From positions 3,225,483 to 3,289,482 of the forward strand of contig OY969800.1 of NCBI GenBank assembly GCA_963703215.1: DNA of 64,000 nt. Direction: 5' to 3'. The stretch comes from an uncultured Bacteroidota bacterium. GTDB lineage: Bacteria; Bacteroidota; Ignavibacteria; Kryptoniales; JAKASW01. Of this stretch, positions 43,911-55,959 are shown piece after piece (position 1 is the stretch's first letter; each line of letters opens with the position of its first letter). The position numbers and the translations under genes were made by a program. The notes below the pieces were generated by a model. The model saw only the letters and a program-made list of their open reading frames with translations. It had not been told where the DNA came from and did not search any database.

Positions 43911-44807
43911 GTGATGAGGAATCTGAGGATTGAAATGAGAGACAAAAAATCCGAAAGCGACCGGTTCAAACAGGCTCGCCAGATTGAAATGCTGTCGCTC
44001 GTCGAGAAGAATGCAAATTCCTATTCCGTCGCCGATCTATGTGACATCTTCCATGTTGAAGTAGCAACCGTACATCGCGACCTCCGGGATCTTCGCGAAG
44101 CAGGACACGACATCCACAGCGCCAAGAACAAGCTCATCCTACTCAAGAATCTAACCGAGAAAGATTACCGATTTCTCCTCTCCAATTATCTCACGTCGGC
44201 AAGCGGGATAATAAGTTTCCCGAAGAATATTTCTTTGACGGTTAAACAGCTCAAGGGAAAAACTCTCGAGGTATTTACAGGGCTGGTTGGTGCTATAGGA
44301 GCAAGAGAGAAAATCGAAATCGATTACATGAGGCATCAGGATTCTCGGCTGCACAAATATGTCCTGGAACCCTACGACATTATTCCCGGCAACCGTGACT
44401 GGCGACTCATCGCCGTCTCTGATGGAATTTTCAAACAGTTCATCATCGGAGCCGTAAAAGAAATCAAACGGACTGGCACCTCCTTCAAACGTACGACTGA
44501 ATATTCGGCAGACGAATACTACTCGGGAAGCTTCGGTTTCTTCAGCGGGAAGAATGTGTTCGAAGTAGTTCTCGAATTTAAGAAGAATGTAGGCGACGTT
44601 GTTTCCAACAGGACATGGAGCGAAGACCAGGAAGTCACTCGCGACGATGACGGGACAGTCACGTTGAAGATGAAAGTAAATTCGATAGAAGAAGTCGGGA
44701 GCTGGGTGTTATCATGGGGCGGCGAAGTGAGAATAGTTGAACCCGTCCAGCTGAAAGAATACGTGATAGAAAAAGCAAGAGGGATTCTGAAGAGCAACCG
44801 GCGATAA
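43911..44807 (+). CDS. WYL domain-containing transcriptional regulator (HTH-WYL-WCX architecture)
   Basis: 298 aa. N-terminal wHTH (YSVADLCDIFHVEVATVHRDLRDLREAGHDI). Central WYL-type domain (IEIDYMRH...YVLEPYDIIPGNRDWRLIAV...FIIGAVKEIK). C-terminal extension (SWVLSWGGEVRIVEPVQLKEYV). Confidence 0.8.
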   Translation: MMRNLRIEMRDKKSESDRFKQARQIEMLSLVEKNANSYSVADLCDIFHVEVATVHRDLRDLREAGHDIHSAKNKLILLKNLTEKDYRFLLSNYLTSASGIISFPKNISLTVKQLKGKTLEVFTGLVGAIGAREKIEIDYMRHQDSRLHKYVLEPYDIIPGNRDWRLIAVSDGIFKQFIIGAVKEIKRTGTSFKRTTEYSADEYYSGSFGFFSGKNVFEVVLEFKKNVGDVVSNRTWSEDQEVTRDDDGTVTLKMKVNSIEEVGSWVLSWGGEVRIVEPVQLKEYVIEKARGILKSNRR

Positions 44808-44837
44808 AGTGTCCACAAGAAATTGCACGGTGTCAAT

Positions 44838-44907
44838 CCTGCGAAAGCGGGAATTCATAATCTCTCAGAATCCGCCGCACTGGATTCCCGATGCCGCCTT
44901 GCGGCAT
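44838..44907. repeat. GC-rich hairpins (REP-like) downstream of the WYL gene
   Basis: cctgc-gaaa-gcggg (44838-44851) and atgccgc-ctt-gcggcat (44891-44907), each flanked by GGAATTC/GGATTCCCGA-type sequence. Confidence 0.35.
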
Positions 44908-44980
44908 GCCGCATACTTGTATACAAATAATTGAGCGGCGTAGGAACATTCGGGAATAACATTGTTCTCATTTCGCATGG

Positions 44981-44992
44981 CACCAATTGGTG
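44981..44992. promoter_or_regulatory. perfect 12-bp palindrome CACCAATTGGTG (candidate operator)
   Basis: Perfect dyad about 140 nt upstream of the ATG at 45134, in the intergenic region after the WYL regulator. A second 8-bp palindrome, TGTATACA, lies at 44918-44925. Confidence 0.25.
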
Positions 44993-45133
44993 ATCCGGAA
45001 CCTTGGCGTGTCTCCACAGTCTTAAAATTAAGAAGATAACACCTCAGTCAGGGAAAGAAATATTATCACTCAATGATACGATTTCCCCACCTATCATGCC
45101 TTATATATCCTGCGCAAAAAGGAGAACATACAA

Positions 45134-45526
45134 ATGGCAGGATATTACGGAATCATTCAAAGCGTCGTCAAACGAGGGTATGACGCATTCCAGTTAACCT
45201 TCAGAGTAAACCAGGTCCAAGACACACACGAAGTAAATTCCACAGTCCAGGATAAATTCCACGGCGAAACGTATGTTTACCGGGTGGACGTGGCTGTCGA
45301 AAAAGATCGGCTCATCCTTTTCCCCGACCGTGAATTGGCCCAATGCTTGACGCTGTATCGCAATTCATCCGATAGATCGTCGGACACAGACTGGAAGAAG
45401 TGGCACGATGTTGGCCAGGCAGCCGACCGCCTGTGCCGTCATGTGAGCTCCCTCCTGTTCGAAAAGGACAACCATGCCAGCAAAGCTTTCCCGTCTCAAA
45501 TGGATTTTCATTTCAAGATGAATTGA
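45134..45526 (+). CDS. hypothetical small protein (paralog 1 of a tandem pair)
   Basis: 130 aa. GGAG RBS (aaaaggagaacatacaaATG). The N-terminus YYGIIQSVVKRGYDAFQLTFR and later LAQCLTLYRN / DWKKW align with the next ORF. Confidence 0.7.
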   Translation: MAGYYGIIQSVVKRGYDAFQLTFRVNQVQDTHEVNSTVQDKFHGETYVYRVDVAVEKDRLILFPDRELAQCLTLYRNSSDRSSDTDWKKWHDVGQAADRLCRHVSSLLFEKDNHASKAFPSQMDFHFKMN

Positions 45527-45538
45527 AGGAGTAACAAA

Positions 45539-45892
45539 ATGGAAAACTATCAGGGTATCGTTCAGAATATCGTTATGATTGGAGATGGCGAGTACCGCGT
45601 CACATTCCGCGCGTATAATGGACACGATCTCGAAACCCGCTTCTGGGAAAATGAAGATGTGCCATTCACACTTTATTCGATGATCGCCCGACGAGAAGAG
45701 AACGACTACTCTCTAATCGCGGAAGGGACGCTCAGTGATTGCATCAATGTCCTCCGCGAAAACGAATCGGTCGAAACAGTCGGTACGGATGAGATTGACA
45801 AATGGAAGATCGGAGCTTTGGCAACCAATATCGCTTCTTCGCTCGCAGACAGCGGCATGTTCACTCCGTGCGAAGTTGACGAGGAAGCCTGA
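45539..45892 (+). CDS. hypothetical small protein (paralog 2 of a tandem pair)
   Basis: 117 aa. GGAG RBS (gaaggagtaacaaaATG). NYQGIVQNIVMIGDGEYRVTFR, LSDCINVLREN and DKWK align with paralog 1. Confidence 0.7.
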   Translation: MENYQGIVQNIVMIGDGEYRVTFRAYNGHDLETRFWENEDVPFTLYSMIARREENDYSLIAEGTLSDCINVLRENESVETVGTDEIDKWKIGALATNIASSLADSGMFTPCEVDEEA

Positions 45893-45904
45893 TGTTTCGC
45901 TGCG

Positions 45905-45994
45905 GGAATCCACGATTTGAAGCTCCTGGATAAGCACGGCATCGTCCGCTAGATTACTTTCAAGCGTCGGAACGATTTCTTCAAGTGCAGCCAT
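45905..45994 (-). pseudogene. truncated duplicate of the small ORF at 48133-48303
   Basis: MAALEEIVPTLESNLADDAVLIQEL matches (R)EEIVPMLESILADEAVFMSKL of the ORF upstream of the J-like gene. About three quarters of ~64 nt are identical by manual alignment. The rest of track ORF 45713-45994 is antisense to the paralog-2 gene. Confidence 0.5.
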
Positions 45995-46083
45995 GATTTA
46001 TACTTCTCCATGGTTTGTGAATAAACTTGTCACCGCTTGGATGTACCGTCACGAATTACCTCCTGACTGCCAGACTGTTGATC

Positions 46084-46128
46084 GTCGGGAAGGAACTCCC
46101 GACACCCCGCCACCGCTCGGGGTCGGGA
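46084..46128. repeat. REP-like hairpin cluster (GTCGGGA-N6-TCCCGAC, ACCCCG-N8-CGGGGT, then CGGGA)
   Basis: Two adjacent perfect hairpins. The trailing CGGGGTCGGGA can instead pair with TCCCGACACCCCG, so mutually exclusive folds are possible. Confidence 0.45.
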
Positions 46129-46548
46129 CGAAAGTGCCATTTCCAGATACCTAAAATACCAACGGTCGGCACCGAAGATCTTTATGGTAATTATTACTTA
46201 CTGAACTGGGTATTGTTCATCATAAGTTCTTATCCTGAAACGATCTCTGCTGAAAACACTGGAAATTCAAATGAGCCGACTTGGCATACATATTGAGCTT
46301 ATTCGTGAATGTGAAAACAATACCAATTCATTCTCAAGAACCTGAGCTTCCAAAAGCTTGGGCAAATTATTTGTCGAATGATGGGTATACCGTGCTCACC
46401 TCCTCTGATGTGCTAGAGTCAGCTGGGATTCCTCCGACGCAATTAGAGCTGCTTGTAGCCGCGGATTCGTTCGTGAGCCGGGATTACCGATTTCTTTCAG
46501 CAAATTAAAAGGAGTGGTTAACACTCCGCAAACTACGGGAGGCAACAA

Positions 46549-47121
46549 GTGAGGCGTCTATTCTACAAGCTGATGGGATTTTTCGTTATTGTCTTTTTAA
46601 TTGTAGCGGTTTCTGTTGATACGTTAAATGCCCTCGAATCCAGTGTGACTCCGCTTCAAGCGATTTTCATGATCAAGCAGCTCATTCCTCAGGTGCAAAC
46701 GATCGGACTCATGTGGAACCTAAGCTTAGCAAATACAAGCGACCTTTTGCCAAAAATAGAAAGGGCAGCTGTCTCGACCGGTGTGAAAGTGGTGATCGAG
46801 GACGTTGAAGGAATAAGTGACGTCCCGCAGAAATTCAGGGATCTCAAAGATAACCGGCATGTCCAGGTGCTGTGGATCATCGATGAAAGCTCCCCTTTTA
46901 ATGCTCCTGTCGTAAAAGATTATCTGGTAAAGACCGCGATCGTAGACGGGATTGCGCTATTCGCCCCTAATTCCGATTGGGTTTCAGCGGGTGCTTGCAC
47001 TTCGCTGTCTACCGACGGTAATACGTTGAGGCTATGCGTCAATAGAAAAACTATCGCTGCCCTCGGGCTAAATGTACCAGACAAGTATTTGCTGCACACA
47101 GACTTCCTCGCAGCAAAGTGA
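46549..47121 (+). CDS. membrane-anchored periplasmic-binding-protein-like protein (resembles one lobe of ABC_sub_bind/PF04392-type proteins)
   Basis: 190 aa. GTG start with GGAGG RBS. N-terminal TM/signal anchor. IKQLIPQVQTIGLMWN...AVSTGVKVVIEDV...VQVLWIIDES...ALFAPNSDWVSAGA resembles the second repeat of that binding-protein family. Assignment is tentative. Confidence 0.4.
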   Translation: MRRLFYKLMGFFVIVFLIVAVSVDTLNALESSVTPLQAIFMIKQLIPQVQTIGLMWNLSLANTSDLLPKIERAAVSTGVKVVIEDVEGISDVPQKFRDLKDNRHVQVLWIIDESSPFNAPVVKDYLVKTAIVDGIALFAPNSDWVSAGACTSLSTDGNTLRLCVNRKTIAALGLNVPDKYLLHTDFLAAK

Positions 47122-47466
47122 CGGAAAAACTTGAGTCATCGGAACGGGGGCAACGTAGCGTTGCCCCTGCTTTATCATCATTATTTGTTTTCGCTTCGTT
47201 GATGATGATTATACGGTGGAAATGATTTGGCATCACGACAAATTCATCCATTTCGACGTTCGGGTATTTGTTCGGAATCTCATCCAAACATTCTTTGACG
47301 ATCTCCCCGAATTGATTCATCTTCATTTCAGAATCGATAACATCACCGAATTGTAAGGGCGATTCATGAATCGCCTCTAACTGCGCACACACACGGTAAT
47401 AAAACATCCACAAGGACAGGAATAATCATACCCCTTTAACCGAATCGAACGACGGCATGTCCGCCA
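47051..47466 (-). pseudogene. REP-associated tyrosine transposase (RAYT/IS200-like) remnant
   Basis: HUH motif retained (EFVVMPNHFHRIIII). The canonical N-terminus RRSIRLKGYDYSCPCGCFITVCVRS* lies in a different frame (47453 downward) and ends in a stop. The ATG at 47466 is in a third frame. The C-terminal half with the catalytic Tyr is missing, and the remnant abuts or overlaps the 46549-47121 gene. Confidence 0.65.
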
Positions 47467-47542: not shown

Positions 47543-48136
47543 TCATGTGTCATCGCTCGATTGACGGAACAATGAGATAAAAGCCATTATGGAAAAACCC
47601 GCGAAGGAAAGACCGACGCAGGAGGAAACTGCGACTGCAAACCAAAATCTCCATGGGTCATTCCTCATCGAGACGACTCCCCCGAAACGAGGATGCTTTG
47701 AAATTTCCCACGTCGCTCCCGTTAATAATCCCCTCGCCGCCGCGTACAGCCCCAGGAGACCTAGTGCAAGAAAAAACAGTCCGCTGATTATCGCGATTAT
47801 CTGACCTACTGGGGCAAAGTGTTCAGAGGTGTCAATTCCTTGTTTTGCAGCTTCTTCCCGATCTCTATTTACCTCCTTATGGTATTCGGTCACTTCCTGT
47901 TGATGTTCTGAAGCTTCTTTCCTACTTAGTTCATCATTGAGAAGATTGTCGTAGAGTCCCCGCGATGTCTCATTGCCAAGAATGGAATATGCCTTCTCAA
48001 CCGCGGAAATGCTTTCGCCTGTCATCGAACCGTTTGGCTGCTCAGACTTTAGCCACGCAATTTTATTTTCGTATGCCAGGCGGATTTGTTCGTCCGTCGC
48101 GCCGGGTGAAATTCCAAGTAGTTCGTAATACGTCAT
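47543..48136 (-). CDS. J-domain-like membrane protein lacking the HPD motif
   Basis: 197 aa. TYYELLGISPGATDEQIRLAYENKIAWL...VEKAYSILGNETSRGLYD follows the DnaJ J-domain pattern, but the HPD position reads SEQPNG. Two C-terminal TM helices. Confidence 0.7.
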   Translation of the reverse strand: MTYYELLGISPGATDEQIRLAYENKIAWLKSEQPNGSMTGESISAVEKAYSILGNETSRGLYDNLLNDELSRKEASEHQQEVTEYHKEVNRDREEAAKQGIDTSEHFAPVGQIIAIISGLFFLALGLLGLYAAARGLLTGATWEISKHPRFGGVVSMRNDPWRFWFAVAVSSCVGLSFAGFSIMAFISLFRQSSDDT

Positions 48137-50754: not shown

Positions 50755-51591
50755 TCACTTTGGTAATATCCCAATTCTGACGAGGAAATATGTAATGAGC
50801 GCTCCGACAAAGATTTTGAAAACATCGCCAGTGACATCTCCGGGAATGTCGTAAAACCTCCCTTTGATTTTATCCCACACAGTTTTGTTAAATCCAGAAT
50901 CTCTGTCTATGTCGAATTTATAAACATACTTCAAATTATAGGCAACGCTTCCCTTTTCTTCTTTGTTGCCAATCCATTTGCGAGACAAGACTTCCATCGT
51001 CTCGTTTAGATATTCCTCTCCGAATATCGTTTTAATTTGTTCCTTATGTCCGTCACAAATATATCCGGTCATGATATCGATACGGTCATCCATCTTCCTA
51101 CGGTCGAAATCGCCAAAGCACCCAATTGTCTCTTCATGGGAATTAATTTCGATGGAATCTGCCATTTCATTACCTGGTGTACGAGATGCCGTTTTTGAAG
51201 AATAGATGAGGCAGCAATAAATGCTATGCGCCAGGTACTCAAACAACGAAGGTGGTGAAAAAGCCTTTTCCCAATCGACCGTCGTAATGATGCCTATGTT
51301 TTCTTCTTCACCTTCCATATCAAAAAAGTAACCCTCAGGTAAACTCTGTGTTATAATTCCGATGACTAGATCGGCAACCACCTTCTTGCTTTGCACAAAA
51401 CTCCTTAGCCTTTTGGCGGGACTGCCAGACACAAAAGAGGCACTGCCGTTTTTCAAATCTGGAAAGAAGAACTCATAAGTTTTCTGCGCATTGTTCAACG
51501 ATAGAATGAAATATCTGAATGCATCTTCGCTGAAATTTGGGGTCTGAACAAAAATCAATGCAACCTTAAGACGCGGCATAGAATAACACAT
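50755..51591 (-). CDS. hypothetical protein with C-terminal TM anchor, closely following the patatin-like gene
   Basis: 278 aa. Starts 46 nt after the patatin stop. Alternating beta-strand-like segments (KVALIFV, LVIGIIT, IGIITTV), a Cys/His-rich segment (SHEETIGCFGDFDRRKMDDRIDIMTGYICDGH), and a C-terminal helix FKIFVGALITYFLVRIGIL. Confidence 0.6.
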   Translation of the reverse strand: MCYSMPRLKVALIFVQTPNFSEDAFRYFILSLNNAQKTYEFFFPDLKNGSASFVSGSPAKRLRSFVQSKKVVADLVIGIITQSLPEGYFFDMEGEEENIGIITTVDWEKAFSPPSLFEYLAHSIYCCLIYSSKTASRTPGNEMADSIEINSHEETIGCFGDFDRRKMDDRIDIMTGYICDGHKEQIKTIFGEEYLNETMEVLSRKWIGNKEEKGSVAYNLKYVYKFDIDRDSGFNKTVWDKIKGRFYDIPGDVTGDVFKIFVGALITYFLVRIGILPK

Positions 51592-51637
51592 CCTCCTCTT
51601 GTTTTGTCAATTCACTACCCAATTGTACTTCTCATCG

Positions 51638-52588
51638 TTACCACTTACTATTTATCCAACTCGCCCACTTCTCAATAGTACCATGATCAATATTAGCGGG
51701 AAGAGATAAAAGTTCAGGAATCTTGGAGGCATCGTCCATCCCGATGTTCTCTGTCATCTCCGTTTGCATCCGCTGGTATTTGTCTCCTGTCAGGATATTT
51801 TTGCACTGATAATCCGCTATCCCAACAGGGCCGTCCATGATCATTGAAAGGAGCCTCGTGTTCCAGCCGAGTATTCCCCACCTCACTCTCTTTCTTCTGA
51901 CAAATACCGGATTCTCTCCCGTGCCAATCGATATAAGGCGAACACTTTCGATGTCTCTCTGAGACTTGTTCCTCGGATCGAGGACCTGGGCAAGCGCACA
52001 CATGCTCGGATTGTTAGCGCAGACCCCACCGTCGACAAAGCCTTCGACAGATGGCAGATAGGTCGGCGCCGCACTGGTGTAAAGTCCGACATTGCGAAGC
52101 AGGTCTTTGTCTTGATCGTTCCCCTCAAAGTTATGGAATATCTTCGGTGCCCAGCGGTTTCGCTTGTTCTCTTTTATATCCAGGTCAAACGAAACGACAA
52201 CAACTTTTTTCTTCAACTCATCCAGCCGCGTTTCACCAAACATATTCTCCAGGTGACCCTCAAGTGCAGTATTTCTGTATCCAGCATGTATGAATTTGAA
52301 GACTGAAGAAATATAGTACAGGCTCGATCTGTTAAAGATGCCCGCTCCGAAGTTCTTGTAGAAATCTATTATCTGATCCAGGCTCTTTCCGGACGCCAGC
52401 GAGAGCGCGATCAGTCCGCCTGTGGATGTGCCAGCATAGACATCCGCTTCATGGATCCAGGCTTCGCTACCAAGCTCAGCCGATACTTTCTTCAAGACCC
52501 CGAGGCTGATCAATCCTTTCAGTCCGCCTCCGTCGAATGAGAGGACGCGGTAATGATTCTGGTCGTTCATGAGTTCACTAACCTCCAT
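51638..52588 (-). CDS. patatin-like phospholipase
   Basis: 316 aa. Oxyanion-hole motif FDGGGLKG, nucleophile elbow GTSTG (GxSxG), and catalytic Asp in FVDGGVCANNP (DGG). All canonical patatin motifs are intact. Confidence 0.85.
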   Translation of the reverse strand: MEVSELMNDQNHYRVLSFDGGGLKGLISLGVLKKVSAELGSEAWIHEADVYAGTSTGGLIALSLASGKSLDQIIDFYKNFGAGIFNRSSLYYISSVFKFIHAGYRNTALEGHLENMFGETRLDELKKKVVVVSFDLDIKENKRNRWAPKIFHNFEGNDQDKDLLRNVGLYTSAAPTYLPSVEGFVDGGVCANNPSMCALAQVLDPRNKSQRDIESVRLISIGTGENPVFVRRKRVRWGILGWNTRLLSMIMDGPVGIADYQCKNILTGDKYQRMQTEMTENIGMDDASKIPELLSLPANIDHGTIEKWASWINSKW

Positions 52589-52779: not shown

Positions 52780-53832
52780 TTATGGGTTATCCGCCCATGT
52801 ATAATAGATGAACTCACTGTAAGGATCCCCAGCGACTTCCTCAACGATGTTGCGTACTGCCACCGCATCAGTGTTGAGTTGGGATGCCAATAATTTCACA
52901 ATAGCTTCTGCCTTTTCCTTCTCTCCCTCATCTGTTCCCGACAATGAATCCGATAGGTTGATAATCTCGAAGGCGCTACGAAGGCCGACTTTTCGCCATT
53001 TATCCTGATCCCGTTCAGTATAGATCCACAGCAACGCCTGGCTGACACAATCGACTATATAACTATATCCGAGGTTCGTGCGGATGGTAAGTTTTATAGG
53101 GTCGTAATAGGCCAATTGAGAAACAGTTGTAATTCCTTCCTCTCCAAAGCGTTCGGCCTTGCGTGCATCAACGCCGTGCAGGGACTGAAGCTCACTCTCC
53201 ACGTTCTCAGAGCCTTCTCCCAGACCTAACTTTTGTCGTCCCAACTTCCTCATTAGGGAAAAAAGACTGTCAGTCGGAAATGCGCCAAGCAAAAATGCGA
53301 CAGCAGGACCGATATTTTCCGCAGCAAATTGTGATATGGCGTATCCCAATGGAACTGCAACAACAAACCTGAAACATGCCCAGTATAAATCACCCGGCGA
53401 GAGATCAGCATACCACCATCTGGTAATCTGGTCATTTAGGACCCACATGTAAGCTCCAAAAACCGCAAATACTCCCACAATTTTGGATGGCGGATTCAAA
53501 ATTGCGCTGTCATTGGACTGCACCCAGAGGAGACACTGAAACAACAGAAATGCAGCAACTAATAAGAACAGGACAATAGGGAGGATGAAGCGCTTTCTTC
53601 CATATTGGGTATCATAATATTTTTCAAATCGCCGCACCTGATCCTGCTCGTCTCTTTCATATCTCGGATGAAATTGTTTGAAGTATGTCTTGATCGCATT
53701 TTGTTGATCACTGTAAATACCACTTAGAATTTCGAAGCGACGCTCCCTCCAGCCTCCCACAAGAAACGAAAGACTTGGGGCAAGCAAGAGAACTGTCGCA
53801 AGTACTGTTCCTATCAAATATAGATCGTTCAT
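52780..53832 (-). CDS. hypothetical polytopic membrane protein with C-terminal helix-hairpin-helix-like (DUF4332-like) region
   Basis: 350 aa. About 5-6 TM helices in the N-terminal 200 aa. The C-terminal LQSLHGVDARKAERFGEEGITTVSQLAYYDPIKL resembles HhH/DUF4332 motifs. Tentative. Confidence 0.5.
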   Translation of the reverse strand: MNDLYLIGTVLATVLLLAPSLSFLVGGWRERRFEILSGIYSDQQNAIKTYFKQFHPRYERDEQDQVRRFEKYYDTQYGRKRFILPIVLFLLVAAFLLFQCLLWVQSNDSAILNPPSKIVGVFAVFGAYMWVLNDQITRWWYADLSPGDLYWACFRFVVAVPLGYAISQFAAENIGPAVAFLLGAFPTDSLFSLMRKLGRQKLGLGEGSENVESELQSLHGVDARKAERFGEEGITTVSQLAYYDPIKLTIRTNLGYSYIVDCVSQALLWIYTERDQDKWRKVGLRSAFEIINLSDSLSGTDEGEKEKAEAIVKLLASQLNTDAVAVRNIVEEVAGDPYSEFIYYTWADNP

Positions 53833-55002: not shown

Positions 55003-55959
55003 TTATGTTTCCTTGCCAGGCTTCGGTCCAGTCCCTCTCAACTGTACCAGCTTGCTTAGCAGATCAAACCAGAATGGCGCACCCAGAGAGACAGCTAGCG
55101 CCGTGACCAGCCAGCCCAGAACATTCAACGGCCAATGCCTTGAGTCCATGTGATTCGCCGTCGCGCTGGAGCTCCATCCAAGGCCGAGGAGGTGATTCGA
55201 TTGGCTAATGTCGTTCTTGTAAAGATTCGTGGCGTAAACTACAAGAGAATCCTGTGTTGAGGCAGATACGGCCTTTGAAGAATCTGTCTTTACCAATGTC
55301 TGCGGGTGGCTCTGCAAGTAACTAGATGCCATCTGGGCAAGCTCCTGCCTTGCGGCTTTGTCTTGCATAAGATGGCTTGCAATGGAGAAAGTGCTCGCAT
55401 TAAATGCGACAGCGACAGCAGCACCTATGACTAGCGAGATCCACTGAGCCTGCCTCTTGTACCAGCCCGACGCGCGATCCATCATGTCGTTAAACCACTG
55501 CTCGATCAGCGCACGAAACTTCACCACATCGTTGTTCGCCTCCTCGAGGAATGACTGAAGCAAACGAGATGTTTCGCTCTGTGAGTTGGAATCGAGAGCC
55601 TGAATACCGGACAATATCGCCTGCGGAGTAAGCATCCCGGCAGCATTGGCGGCAGTCTTAATGCTTTCGGCGAGAGCCTTGGAAAAATCCTGGGGAGAGA
55701 TGTATGATGGCGTCCTGCTGCCATCCTCGCTCATATACCTGATTATCGGATGCTCAAAGAATGACGCGAACAATTTGTCTGATAACGGCGAGTTCGGATC
55801 ATCATCTGTGAGCATTCGTCTGATCGCCTGCTCCAGCATCTTTCCCCTCAACCCCAGGAACGATGCAATTATTTCATTGACGATCGTTGTGAACAGGCTG
55901 TAAAGACAGTAGACAAACACCAGCCCGATTGCGATATCAAGAATTGTTGAGCCAAACAT
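55003..55959 (-). CDS. hypothetical membrane protein (N-terminal TM, central soluble helical region, C-terminal TM pair)
   Basis: 318 aa. MFGSTILDIAIGLVFVYCLYSLFTTIVNEIIASFLGLRGKML... and the C-terminal LGAPFWFDLLSKLVQLRGTGPKP look like a widespread uncharacterised membrane-protein architecture. No name known to me. Confidence 0.55.
   Translation of the reverse strand: MFGSTILDIAIGLVFVYCLYSLFTTIVNEIIASFLGLRGKMLEQAIRRMLTDDDPNSPLSDKLFASFFEHPIIRYMSEDGSRTPSYISPQDFSKALAESIKTAANAAGMLTPQAILSGIQALDSNSQSETSRLLQSFLEEANNDVVKFRALIEQWFNDMMDRASGWYKRQAQWISLVIGAAVAVAFNASTFSIASHLMQDKAARQELAQMASSYLQSHPQTLVKTDSSKAVSASTQDSLVVYATNLYKNDISQSNHLLGLGWSSSATANHMDSRHWPLNVLGWLVTALAVSLGAPFWFDLLSKLVQLRGTGPKPGKET

Follow-up and report, generated by a model that had tools for sequence, protein, structure and literature searches.

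The window analysed here, a stretch of 64,000 nucleotides (nt) of contig OY969800.1 from an uncultured Bacteroidota bacterium, carries a gene for a patatin-like phospholipase which is followed on the same strand by a gene for a membrane-anchored protein with a Cys/His cluster (hereafter termed partner), and the question raised by this locus is whether both genes constitute a dedicated two-gene system. In the original prediction the two looked like a self-contained cassette, and the partner was suggested to be a zinc-binding regulator, sensor or immunity protein that may tether or gate the lipase at the membrane. The elements in question are the following:

52588..51638, minus strand: patatin gene, 316 amino acids (aa), from the list of open reading frames (ORFs) and the match to Pfam PF01734
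51592..51637, minus strand: patatin-partner spacer, 46 nt, with the Shine-Dalgarno-like sequence GAGGAGG
51591..50755, minus strand: partner ORF, 278 aa, whose first ATG lies 46 nt past the patatin stop codon
50721..50707, minus strand: U-run GGGTTTTTTATTTTT, about 35 nt past the partner stop codon

Patatin and partner are not a conserved pair. A set of 72 partner loci was fetched, 66 of metagenomic origin and six from species-representative genomes, and was searched for patatin both by tblastn with the window patatin and with a hidden Markov model (HMM) derived from 120 patatin homologues. With neither approach was a patatin found in any of the 72 loci, the sole match being the window itself. 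The partner ORF was recovered in 67 of these loci, whereby at least 1 kb was available upstream in 33, downstream in 34 and on at least one of the two sides in 46. Likewise, no partner homologue was identified near the patatin relatives of five lineages. Among the partner relatives, even the closest ones (L001, L007, L008 and L009; 53-55% identity) have other neighbours, the upstream gene encoding DrmB in L001 and an acetyl-CoA carboxylase carboxyltransferase in L007, and all-against-all clustering of the ORFs from the 72 loci revealed no recurrent neighbour family beyond near-identical lineages. A survey of genomes for co-occurrence had been proposed along with the original prediction, and the lack of a conserved linkage to patatin genes had been named as the outcome that would speak against the cassette; this outcome was obtained, and the claim of a self-contained cassette is hence not upheld. 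Literature searches for a system of patatin with a zinc/transmembrane (TM) partner or for archaemetzincin-like defence genes returned nothing relevant, and neither the partner family nor its pairing with patatin is described in the searchable literature. Because partner relatives occur without patatin and patatin relatives occur without partner, a dedicated pair is not assumed. It is rather likely that two independent accessory genes were brought together in a variable island of membrane proteins, one encoding an autonomous CapV-type lipase and the other one a tail-anchored pseudo-archaemetzincin.

The arrangement of both genes was largely as described before, with an ORF of 278 aa starting 46 nt downstream of the patatin gene; its likely start, in turn, was revised to position 51579, since the homologues begin at Met5 (MxRxKV...), which yields a protein of 274 aa and a gap of 58 nt to the patatin stop codon. 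All partner residue numbers given here refer to the 274-aa form. The GAGGAGG sequence directly abuts the first ATG of the longer ORF, and a terminator scan of the spacer called none. The U-run past the partner gene was found, as were the gaps that bound the pair (250 nt from the partner to the next ORF and 191 nt upstream of patatin); at the U-run no canonical hairpin terminator was called by the consensus scan, and it is a possible weak terminator. Taken together, patatin and partner are plausibly co-transcribed. DNA runs from soil metagenomes gave low-depth fragments of the same strain, among which no structural variants were found.

The patatin matches the Pfam model PF01734 (Patatin) with an E-value of 2.6e-27 and 96.7 bits, the cut-off being 27.7, and possesses the three defining patatin motifs (Gly-rich oxyanion, GxSxG and DG[GA]) at the expected positions. 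All motifs previously described as intact were thus located:

52514..52537, minus strand: FDGGGLKG, Gly-rich oxyanion-hole motif, aa 18-25, aligned with the patatin of the cyclic-oligonucleotide-based antiphage signalling system (CBASS)
52418..52432, minus strand: GTSTG, nucleophile elbow, aa 53-57 with Ser55, aligned with the CBASS patatin
52025..52033, minus strand: DGG, catalytic Asp motif, aa 186-188 with Asp186, aligned with AbCapV D192

In AbCapV, D192 is the catalytic base (PMC12480259). The strongest family match of the patatin is the PADLOC CBASS model 'Effector Phospholipase' (PDLC00758; 1.4e-60, aa 10-294), and the best PDB matches are the CBASS patatins 9wn1/9kh6/9kh7 (4.7e-23) and CapV 8zr9 (2.5e-16). 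Like CapV (PDB 8zr9, 9kh7; NF041079), from which it obtains its top profile and PDB scores, the protein is a single-domain patatin of the ~310-360 aa kind, shares the catalytic Ser/Asp motifs and has no separate sensor domain. CapV itself, lacking a separate sensor domain, is switched on by filament formation driven by cyclic GMP-AMP (cGAMP) (PMC12480259). Unlike CapV, the patatin described here has no adjoining cGAS/DncV-like nucleotidyltransferase (CD-NTase), scores 173.5 bits against NCBIfam CBASS_lipase (NF041079) and hence stays below the curated equivalog cut-off of 200, and keeps the cGAMP contacts in part. The essential ligand contacts of CapV are F147, K149, D159, E207 and R279 (PMC12480259); in the phmmer alignment to AbCapV, K149 and D159 are kept, E207 is aligned with Gln, F147 with Arg beside an indel, and R279 falls outside the alignable region. 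No CD-NTase or cyclase model matched in the nine surrounding ORFs or the wider flanks, and in the partner neither nucleotidyltransferase motifs nor model matches were found. On the latter ground the partner was rejected as a minimal nucleotide cyclase, be it a CD-NTase or a diadenylate cyclase; the PanDA preprint presents an architecture other than that of the partner.

Homologues of the patatin are numerous (2931 matches at E ≤ 1e-10), and relatives of 84, 70, 58, 51 and 44% identity (L073-L078, L083 and L084), representing the five lineages mentioned above, were examined for their surroundings. A Pfam match to CD-NTases was found near none of them, and their neighbours all differ, comprising ABC transporters, a glutathione S-transferase (GST), a two-component system and unknown ORFs. 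Since the five lineages lack both CD-NTase and partner and have different neighbours throughout, the patatin clade is a large set of stand-alone CapV-like lipases outside of CBASS operons.

The partner, in turn, belongs to a family without any annotation. A word-indexed search yielded 159 homologues, all unnamed or termed 'hypothetical protein', and according to an exhaustive profile search the family comprises at least 759 clusters at 50% identity. Neither the single sequence nor the family profile gave a credible match in Pfam, PADLOC, NCBIfam or the PDB. Genomes with partner relatives are those of Bacteroidetes/Bacteroidales, Chloroflexia and one Nitrososphaerales archaeon, the distribution of the family being sporadic; in viral contigs no relatives were found, and a Foldseek search against BFVD gave nothing significant. 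Three parts can be distinguished within the protein:

51199..51579, minus strand: N-terminal alpha/beta domain, aa 1-127, with metzincin-like element order in the models
51141..51046, minus strand: zinc module H148-x5-C154-x20-C175-x2-H178, SHEETIGCFGDFDRRKMDDRIDIMTGYICDGH, from family conservation
50764..50814, minus strand: single C-terminal TM anchor IFVGALITYFLVRIGIL, followed by two residues, from hydropathy

Conservation was counted in an alignment of 108 family members. Within the zinc module, H148 is conserved in 97, C154 in 106 and C175 in 103 of these, and position 178 is occupied by Cys in 71 and by His in 23 members (either one in 94/108), so that the Cys/His string with its C-x20-C-x2-H spacing, noticed before in the single sequence, is conserved throughout the family. 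The conservation of these residues is far above chance, and with four conserved ligand positions the partner very probably binds zinc, the module presumably being a structural zinc site. Of the remaining positions N29 is invariant (108/108), D157 is found in 107/108 and E114, which resides in the PPSLFEYL helix at the end of the N-terminal domain, in 107/108; Q32, W103, P109, P110 and S111 as well as G153, W202, G204 and G229 are likewise conserved. The hydrophobic anchor at the C-terminus, which hydropathy had indicated as a single TM helix, is found in 106/108 members. Two family members possess additional parts. P0386 (508 aa) continues beyond the TM helix with further hydrophobic segments and, by eye, a peptidoglycan-binding region of the OmpA/MotB type, and in P0366 a GNAT domain is fused to the N-terminus. 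Because of these fusions and as no signal peptide is found, the N-terminal domain is predicted to be cytoplasmic; the globular domain of the family would hence lie in the cytoplasm, with the anchor at the C-terminus. Of the role suggested earlier for the partner, predicted zinc binding is supported by the conserved ligands, and tethering or gating of the lipase is not supported, as no linkage was found.

The fold of the partner was approached by AlphaFold2 models computed from 34 sequences (predicted local distance difference test, pLDDT, 81.5) and from 108 sequences (pLDDT 88.6, predicted TM-score, pTM, 0.83). In both models the elements are arranged as strand-helix-strand-helix-strand-strand-strand-long helix, after which come a Cys/His segment of little structure, a bundle of helices and the TM helix; the segments KVALIFV, LVIGIIT and IGIITTV, which had been taken for Rossmann-like strands, were found and are beta-strands by prediction (E4-10, E71-76 and E95-99). 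Foldseek searches of the PDB with both models returned almost exclusively metzincins. The top match of the better model is AmzA (2x7m; E 0.016, probability 0.97, TM-score 0.51, target-normalised), followed by ADAM22, adamalysins/snake-venom metalloproteinases, karilysin and TACE with E-values of 0.02-0.4. The metzincin assignment is thus consistent but weak. As the beta-hairpin and the helix order fit metzincins better, this fold was preferred over a Rossmann fold; a TIR or nucleoside-deoxyribosyltransferase-like Rossmann domain was tried and rejected, the respective Foldseek matches being fragmentary and non-significant.

A comparison of spacings, for which archaemetzincin sequences were read from the PDB (2x7m, 3zvs and 3lmc), agrees with this assignment. 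AmzA from M. kandleri reads HELGHTFGLGHCPDRNCVM-(16 residues)-FCRRC, corresponding to H-x5-C-x18-C-x2-C with the third catalytic His as first residue, as compared to H-x5-C-x20-C-x2-H/C in the partner, and an Arg at position +4 past the His is common to both. In position and spacing, the zinc module of the partner matches that of AmzA closely. Like archaemetzincins (M54; AmzA 2x7m, 3zvs), the partner has the order of strand, helix, strands, long helix and zinc module, and the Cys-rich zinc module after the active-site helix, by which M54 is characterised, is found in its sequence with predicted ligands. Unlike archaemetzincins it keeps just the Glu of the HExxHxxGxxH motif, located inside PPSxFEYxL, has His instead of Cys as first ligand of the module, a longer spacer from the helix to the zinc module, and an added helical C-terminal extension with TM anchor. 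HExxH is absent from the corresponding helix, which reads PPSLFEYLAHSIY; across the family the former motif positions are F/L113 and L117 (L/I/V), with E114 as the sole conserved residue of the motif, and the one member of the 108 that has HExxH carries it elsewhere in the protein. The Met-turn, C-V-M in AmzA, is replaced by C154-x-x-D157 in the partner, where the Asp is the near-invariant D157 (107/108). The partner accordingly lacks the defining features of an M54 peptidase yet resembles M54 in its scaffold, and the archaemetzincin-like scaffold without HExxH that had been recognised by eye was borne out weakly, by the top Foldseek match and the spacing of the zinc module. As both HExxH histidines and the Met-turn are lost, the partner is most likely not a canonical metalloprotease. 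We infer a degenerate, protease-derived and zinc-stabilised binding or sensing module, i.e., a pseudo-protease; possibly, it is a non-canonical hydrolase using E114 and D157. With its metalloprotease-like domains, ADAM22 ranks high among the Foldseek matches of the partner, and it is a precedent for a metzincin fold that was retained as binding module after catalysis was lost. Unlike the partner, it is a eukaryotic, extracellular, multi-domain receptor, and the likeness is one of fold alone.

The neighbourhoods of the partner relatives were found to be diverse. In L001, DISARM DrmA (1.4e-191) and DrmB (1.6e-63) are located immediately upstream of the partner homologue, L002 carries a gene of the PD-T4-5/AbiD type as well as one for a large protein whose GLPGAGKS motif is Walker-A-like by eye, and in L031 Dcm and Vsr end 9 nt upstream of the partner homologue. 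Restriction-modification (R-M) genes further lie near the homologue in L009 (Type IV restriction enzyme), L022 (Type II restriction endonuclease and methylase), L035 (Type III methylase and restriction enzyme) and L041 (methylase). Together with L047, which is weakly defence-adjacent, these make up the loci with R-M or defence genes within 4 kb, about a fifth of the loci, or ~7-8 of 45 non-redundant partner loci as a raw count that has no matched background; among the partner loci with long flanks the share is about one third. Housekeeping genes are found next to partner homologues as well, namely those for arginyl-tRNA synthetase, deoxyhypusine synthase, FeoB and acetyl-CoA carboxylase, and a gene for a tetratricopeptide repeat (TPR) protein is also among the neighbours. 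A residence of the partner family in defence islands is suggestive only. Genes for HATPase_c_3 (MORC-like) ATPases of 530-660 aa are direct neighbours of partner homologues at three loci unrelated to one another, two of them also encoding restriction enzymes, and in L050 and L054, which belong to a divergent partner clade, a GNAT acetyltransferase gene lies directly downstream on the same strand with a gap of 70-110 nt:

L047, 6292-7881: MORC-like ATPase gene
L009, 1635-3608: MORC-like ATPase gene
L022, 9042-10676: MORC-like ATPase gene
L050, 2229-2738: GNAT gene
L054, 1375-1791: GNAT gene

Considering the N-terminal GNAT fusion in P0366, GNAT may be functionally linked to that divergent clade.

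Within the window, patatin and partner are part of a run of ten minus-strand genes at ~47.5-56 kb, eight of which encode proteins with TM segments and among which patatin and a DnaJ-TM protein alone have a solid Pfam assignment. The run is bordered by housekeeping genes, on one side those for MazG, a heptosyltransferase, a GWxTD protein and an EPSP-synthase-fold enzyme, on the other side those for a hybrid histidine kinase, GNAT, DedA, a pseudouridine synthase and a WYL regulator. With its ~9 kb, the run has the appearance of an island of envelope proteins that was inserted, and it is delimited by:

55003..55959, minus strand: o318, a 318-aa protein with three TM segments that heads the run, C-terminal motif LGAPFWFDLL
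47543..48136, minus strand: DnaJ-domain protein with PspC-like TM region, at the end of the run

More than 3600 unannotated proteins constitute the o318 family, named relatives being from Ignavibacteria, Kryptobacter, Chitinispirillaceae and Bacteroidota. Homologues of o318 were found 3-4 kb upstream of the partner in L003/L017/L059, where an o318-like protein, an S8 peptidase, a 663-aa protein and the partner are encoded on the same strand, and at a like distance upstream of the patatin in L073/74, where the order, again on the same strand, is an o318-like::trypsin-like fusion, an 844-aa protein and the patatin (20-nt gap). In L079-L082, o318 homologues head variable short runs of unannotated genes, with almost nothing downstream in L082, and the genes downstream of o318 homologues have no similarity to o171, o108 and up350 of the window. 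The S8 peptidase and a ~650-aa protein with signal peptide recur in L003/L017/L059/L079, and the 844-aa protein of L073/74 is a relative of the latter. The recurrence downstream of o318 provides a lead towards a larger, modular, envelope-associated locus, at which it hints with one extra lineage per association.

Further observations were made within and around this run. The cis-regulatory RNA motif DUF805b of Rfam (RF02914; 54947-54981, minus strand) scores 50.5 bits, the gathering score being 35.6, and is located between the o318 stop codon and the start of the gene for a 171-aa putative lipoprotein; as a marker of o318 cassettes it was rejected, since it is absent downstream of o318 homologues in seven other loci. 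The gene upstream of patatin (52780-53832, minus strand) encodes a 350-aa protein which has TM helices at its N-terminus and for which Pfam gave a weak, sub-threshold signal of a helix-hairpin-helix (aa 213-258, E 0.025-0.095); beside the patatin relatives, none of its homologues was found. At 47223-47260, contigs from each of three soil metagenome runs are interrupted at an identical pair of positions and have identical loose-end sequences; the break site is inside an ORF of 120 aa (47051-47413, minus strand) that has no Pfam match, and the shared breaks suggest a repeat copy or a variable junction. At 43911-44807 (plus strand) a helix-turn-helix (HTH)-WYL-WCX regulator is encoded, and regulators of this kind are often found beside defence loci. 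The adjoining ~1.7 kb (44800-46550) contain ORFs of at most 130 aa alone and gave no Rfam or tRNA match.

Several of these findings weigh against the reading of patatin and partner as two independent accessory genes. The spacing of 46-58 nt on the same strand, with no terminator called in between, is operon-like; many of the 72 partner loci are short contigs; the metzincin matches on which the assignment is based have E-values of 0.006-0.1, none being ≤ 0.001; at profile level, no sequence match to metzincins, including Peptidase_M54, was obtained; and patatin and partner recur separately downstream of o318-type proteins in other lineages. Owing to the operon-like layout, a functional link restricted to this lineage has to be weighed, according to which the partner would serve the CapV-like lipase in recruitment, gating or sensing at the membrane and would thereby replace the cyclase signal. 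Apart from the tight spacing on the same strand, the Shine-Dalgarno-like sequence and the lack of a called terminator, this idea is favoured by a lipase that has no cyclase nearby, by the membrane anchor of the partner and by the nature of CapV-type lipases, whose site of action is the membrane and which require an event that activates them (PMC12480259). Nevertheless it is considered unlikely, as co-occurrence amounts to 0/72 partner loci and 0/5 patatin lineages and some partner neighbours, for instance a TPR protein and a subunit of acetyl-CoA carboxylase, are plainly unrelated. Genuine sensor-effector pairs normally co-vary across genomes. A similar consideration applies to the Tle-Tli lipase toxin/immunity pairs of the type VI secretion system, which the locus resembles in that the gene for a small membrane-associated protein directly follows that for a phospholipase. 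Across genomes, immunity genes accompany the genes of their toxins; unlike these, the pair described here does not co-occur, and the partner is predicted to face the cytoplasm and has no signal peptide.

A system headed by o318 and related to the envelope, for which patatin, pseudo-metzincin, the S8/trypsin-like protease and the ~650-850-aa protein would represent swapped cargo, could account for o318 homologues being encoded upstream, on the same strand, of both the partner (L003/L017/L059) and the patatin (L073/74), for their heading variable runs in L079-L082 and for eight of the ten window genes encoding TM proteins. Each association, however, is documented by one extra lineage, and with a family of more than 3600 members chance adjacency is expected; moreover, the downstream genes are unlike o171, o108 and up350 of the window and L082 is nearly empty downstream, which renders this explanation quite unlikely. 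Very unlikely is the assumption of an orphaned or remote CBASS effector, in which the patatin would still respond to the cyclic oligonucleotide of a cyclase encoded elsewhere in the genome, with the partner being irrelevant. The best matches to CBASS effector models and structures would fit this assumption, as would the retention of two out of four alignable cGAMP contacts (K149 and D159), the third one, E207, being aligned with Gln (PMC12480259). On the other hand, the patatin stays below the NCBIfam equivalog cut-off, F147 is aligned with Arg, R279 is not alignable, and the relatives at 44-84% identity reside among transporters, GST and other genes without cyclases, for which reason the patatin clade looks cyclase-independent. 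A more far-reaching idea, in which the partner family consists of tail-anchored pseudo-archaemetzincins that serve in prokaryotic immunity, alone in most genomes and coupled here to a cyclase-less lipase to give a nucleotide-independent abortive infection, is regarded as quite improbable.

According to the preferred reading, i.e., that of two independent accessory genes, the patatin would hydrolyse membrane phospholipids via Ser55 and Asp186 and, by analogy with CapV, would probably be held inactive until being triggered. Through its C-terminal anchor, the partner would be attached to the inner membrane face, where it may have a binding or sensing role, and its gene would move on its own, thereby often landing in R-M/defence islands.

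As a two-gene patatin system the locus is unsupported, and what remains of interest are the partner family and the cyclase-less CapV-like clade. In the latter, a lipase of the filament-activated suicide type would have to be controlled in the absence of its cyclase. The partner family, unannotated and with at least 759 clusters at 50% identity present in both bacteria and archaea, is a candidate Pfam entry which keeps the archaemetzincin zinc module and one Glu, has lost the protease motif and has gained a tail anchor. The lipase is a further member of a known patatin kind, and the partner family is a new variation on an archaemetzincin-like fold.

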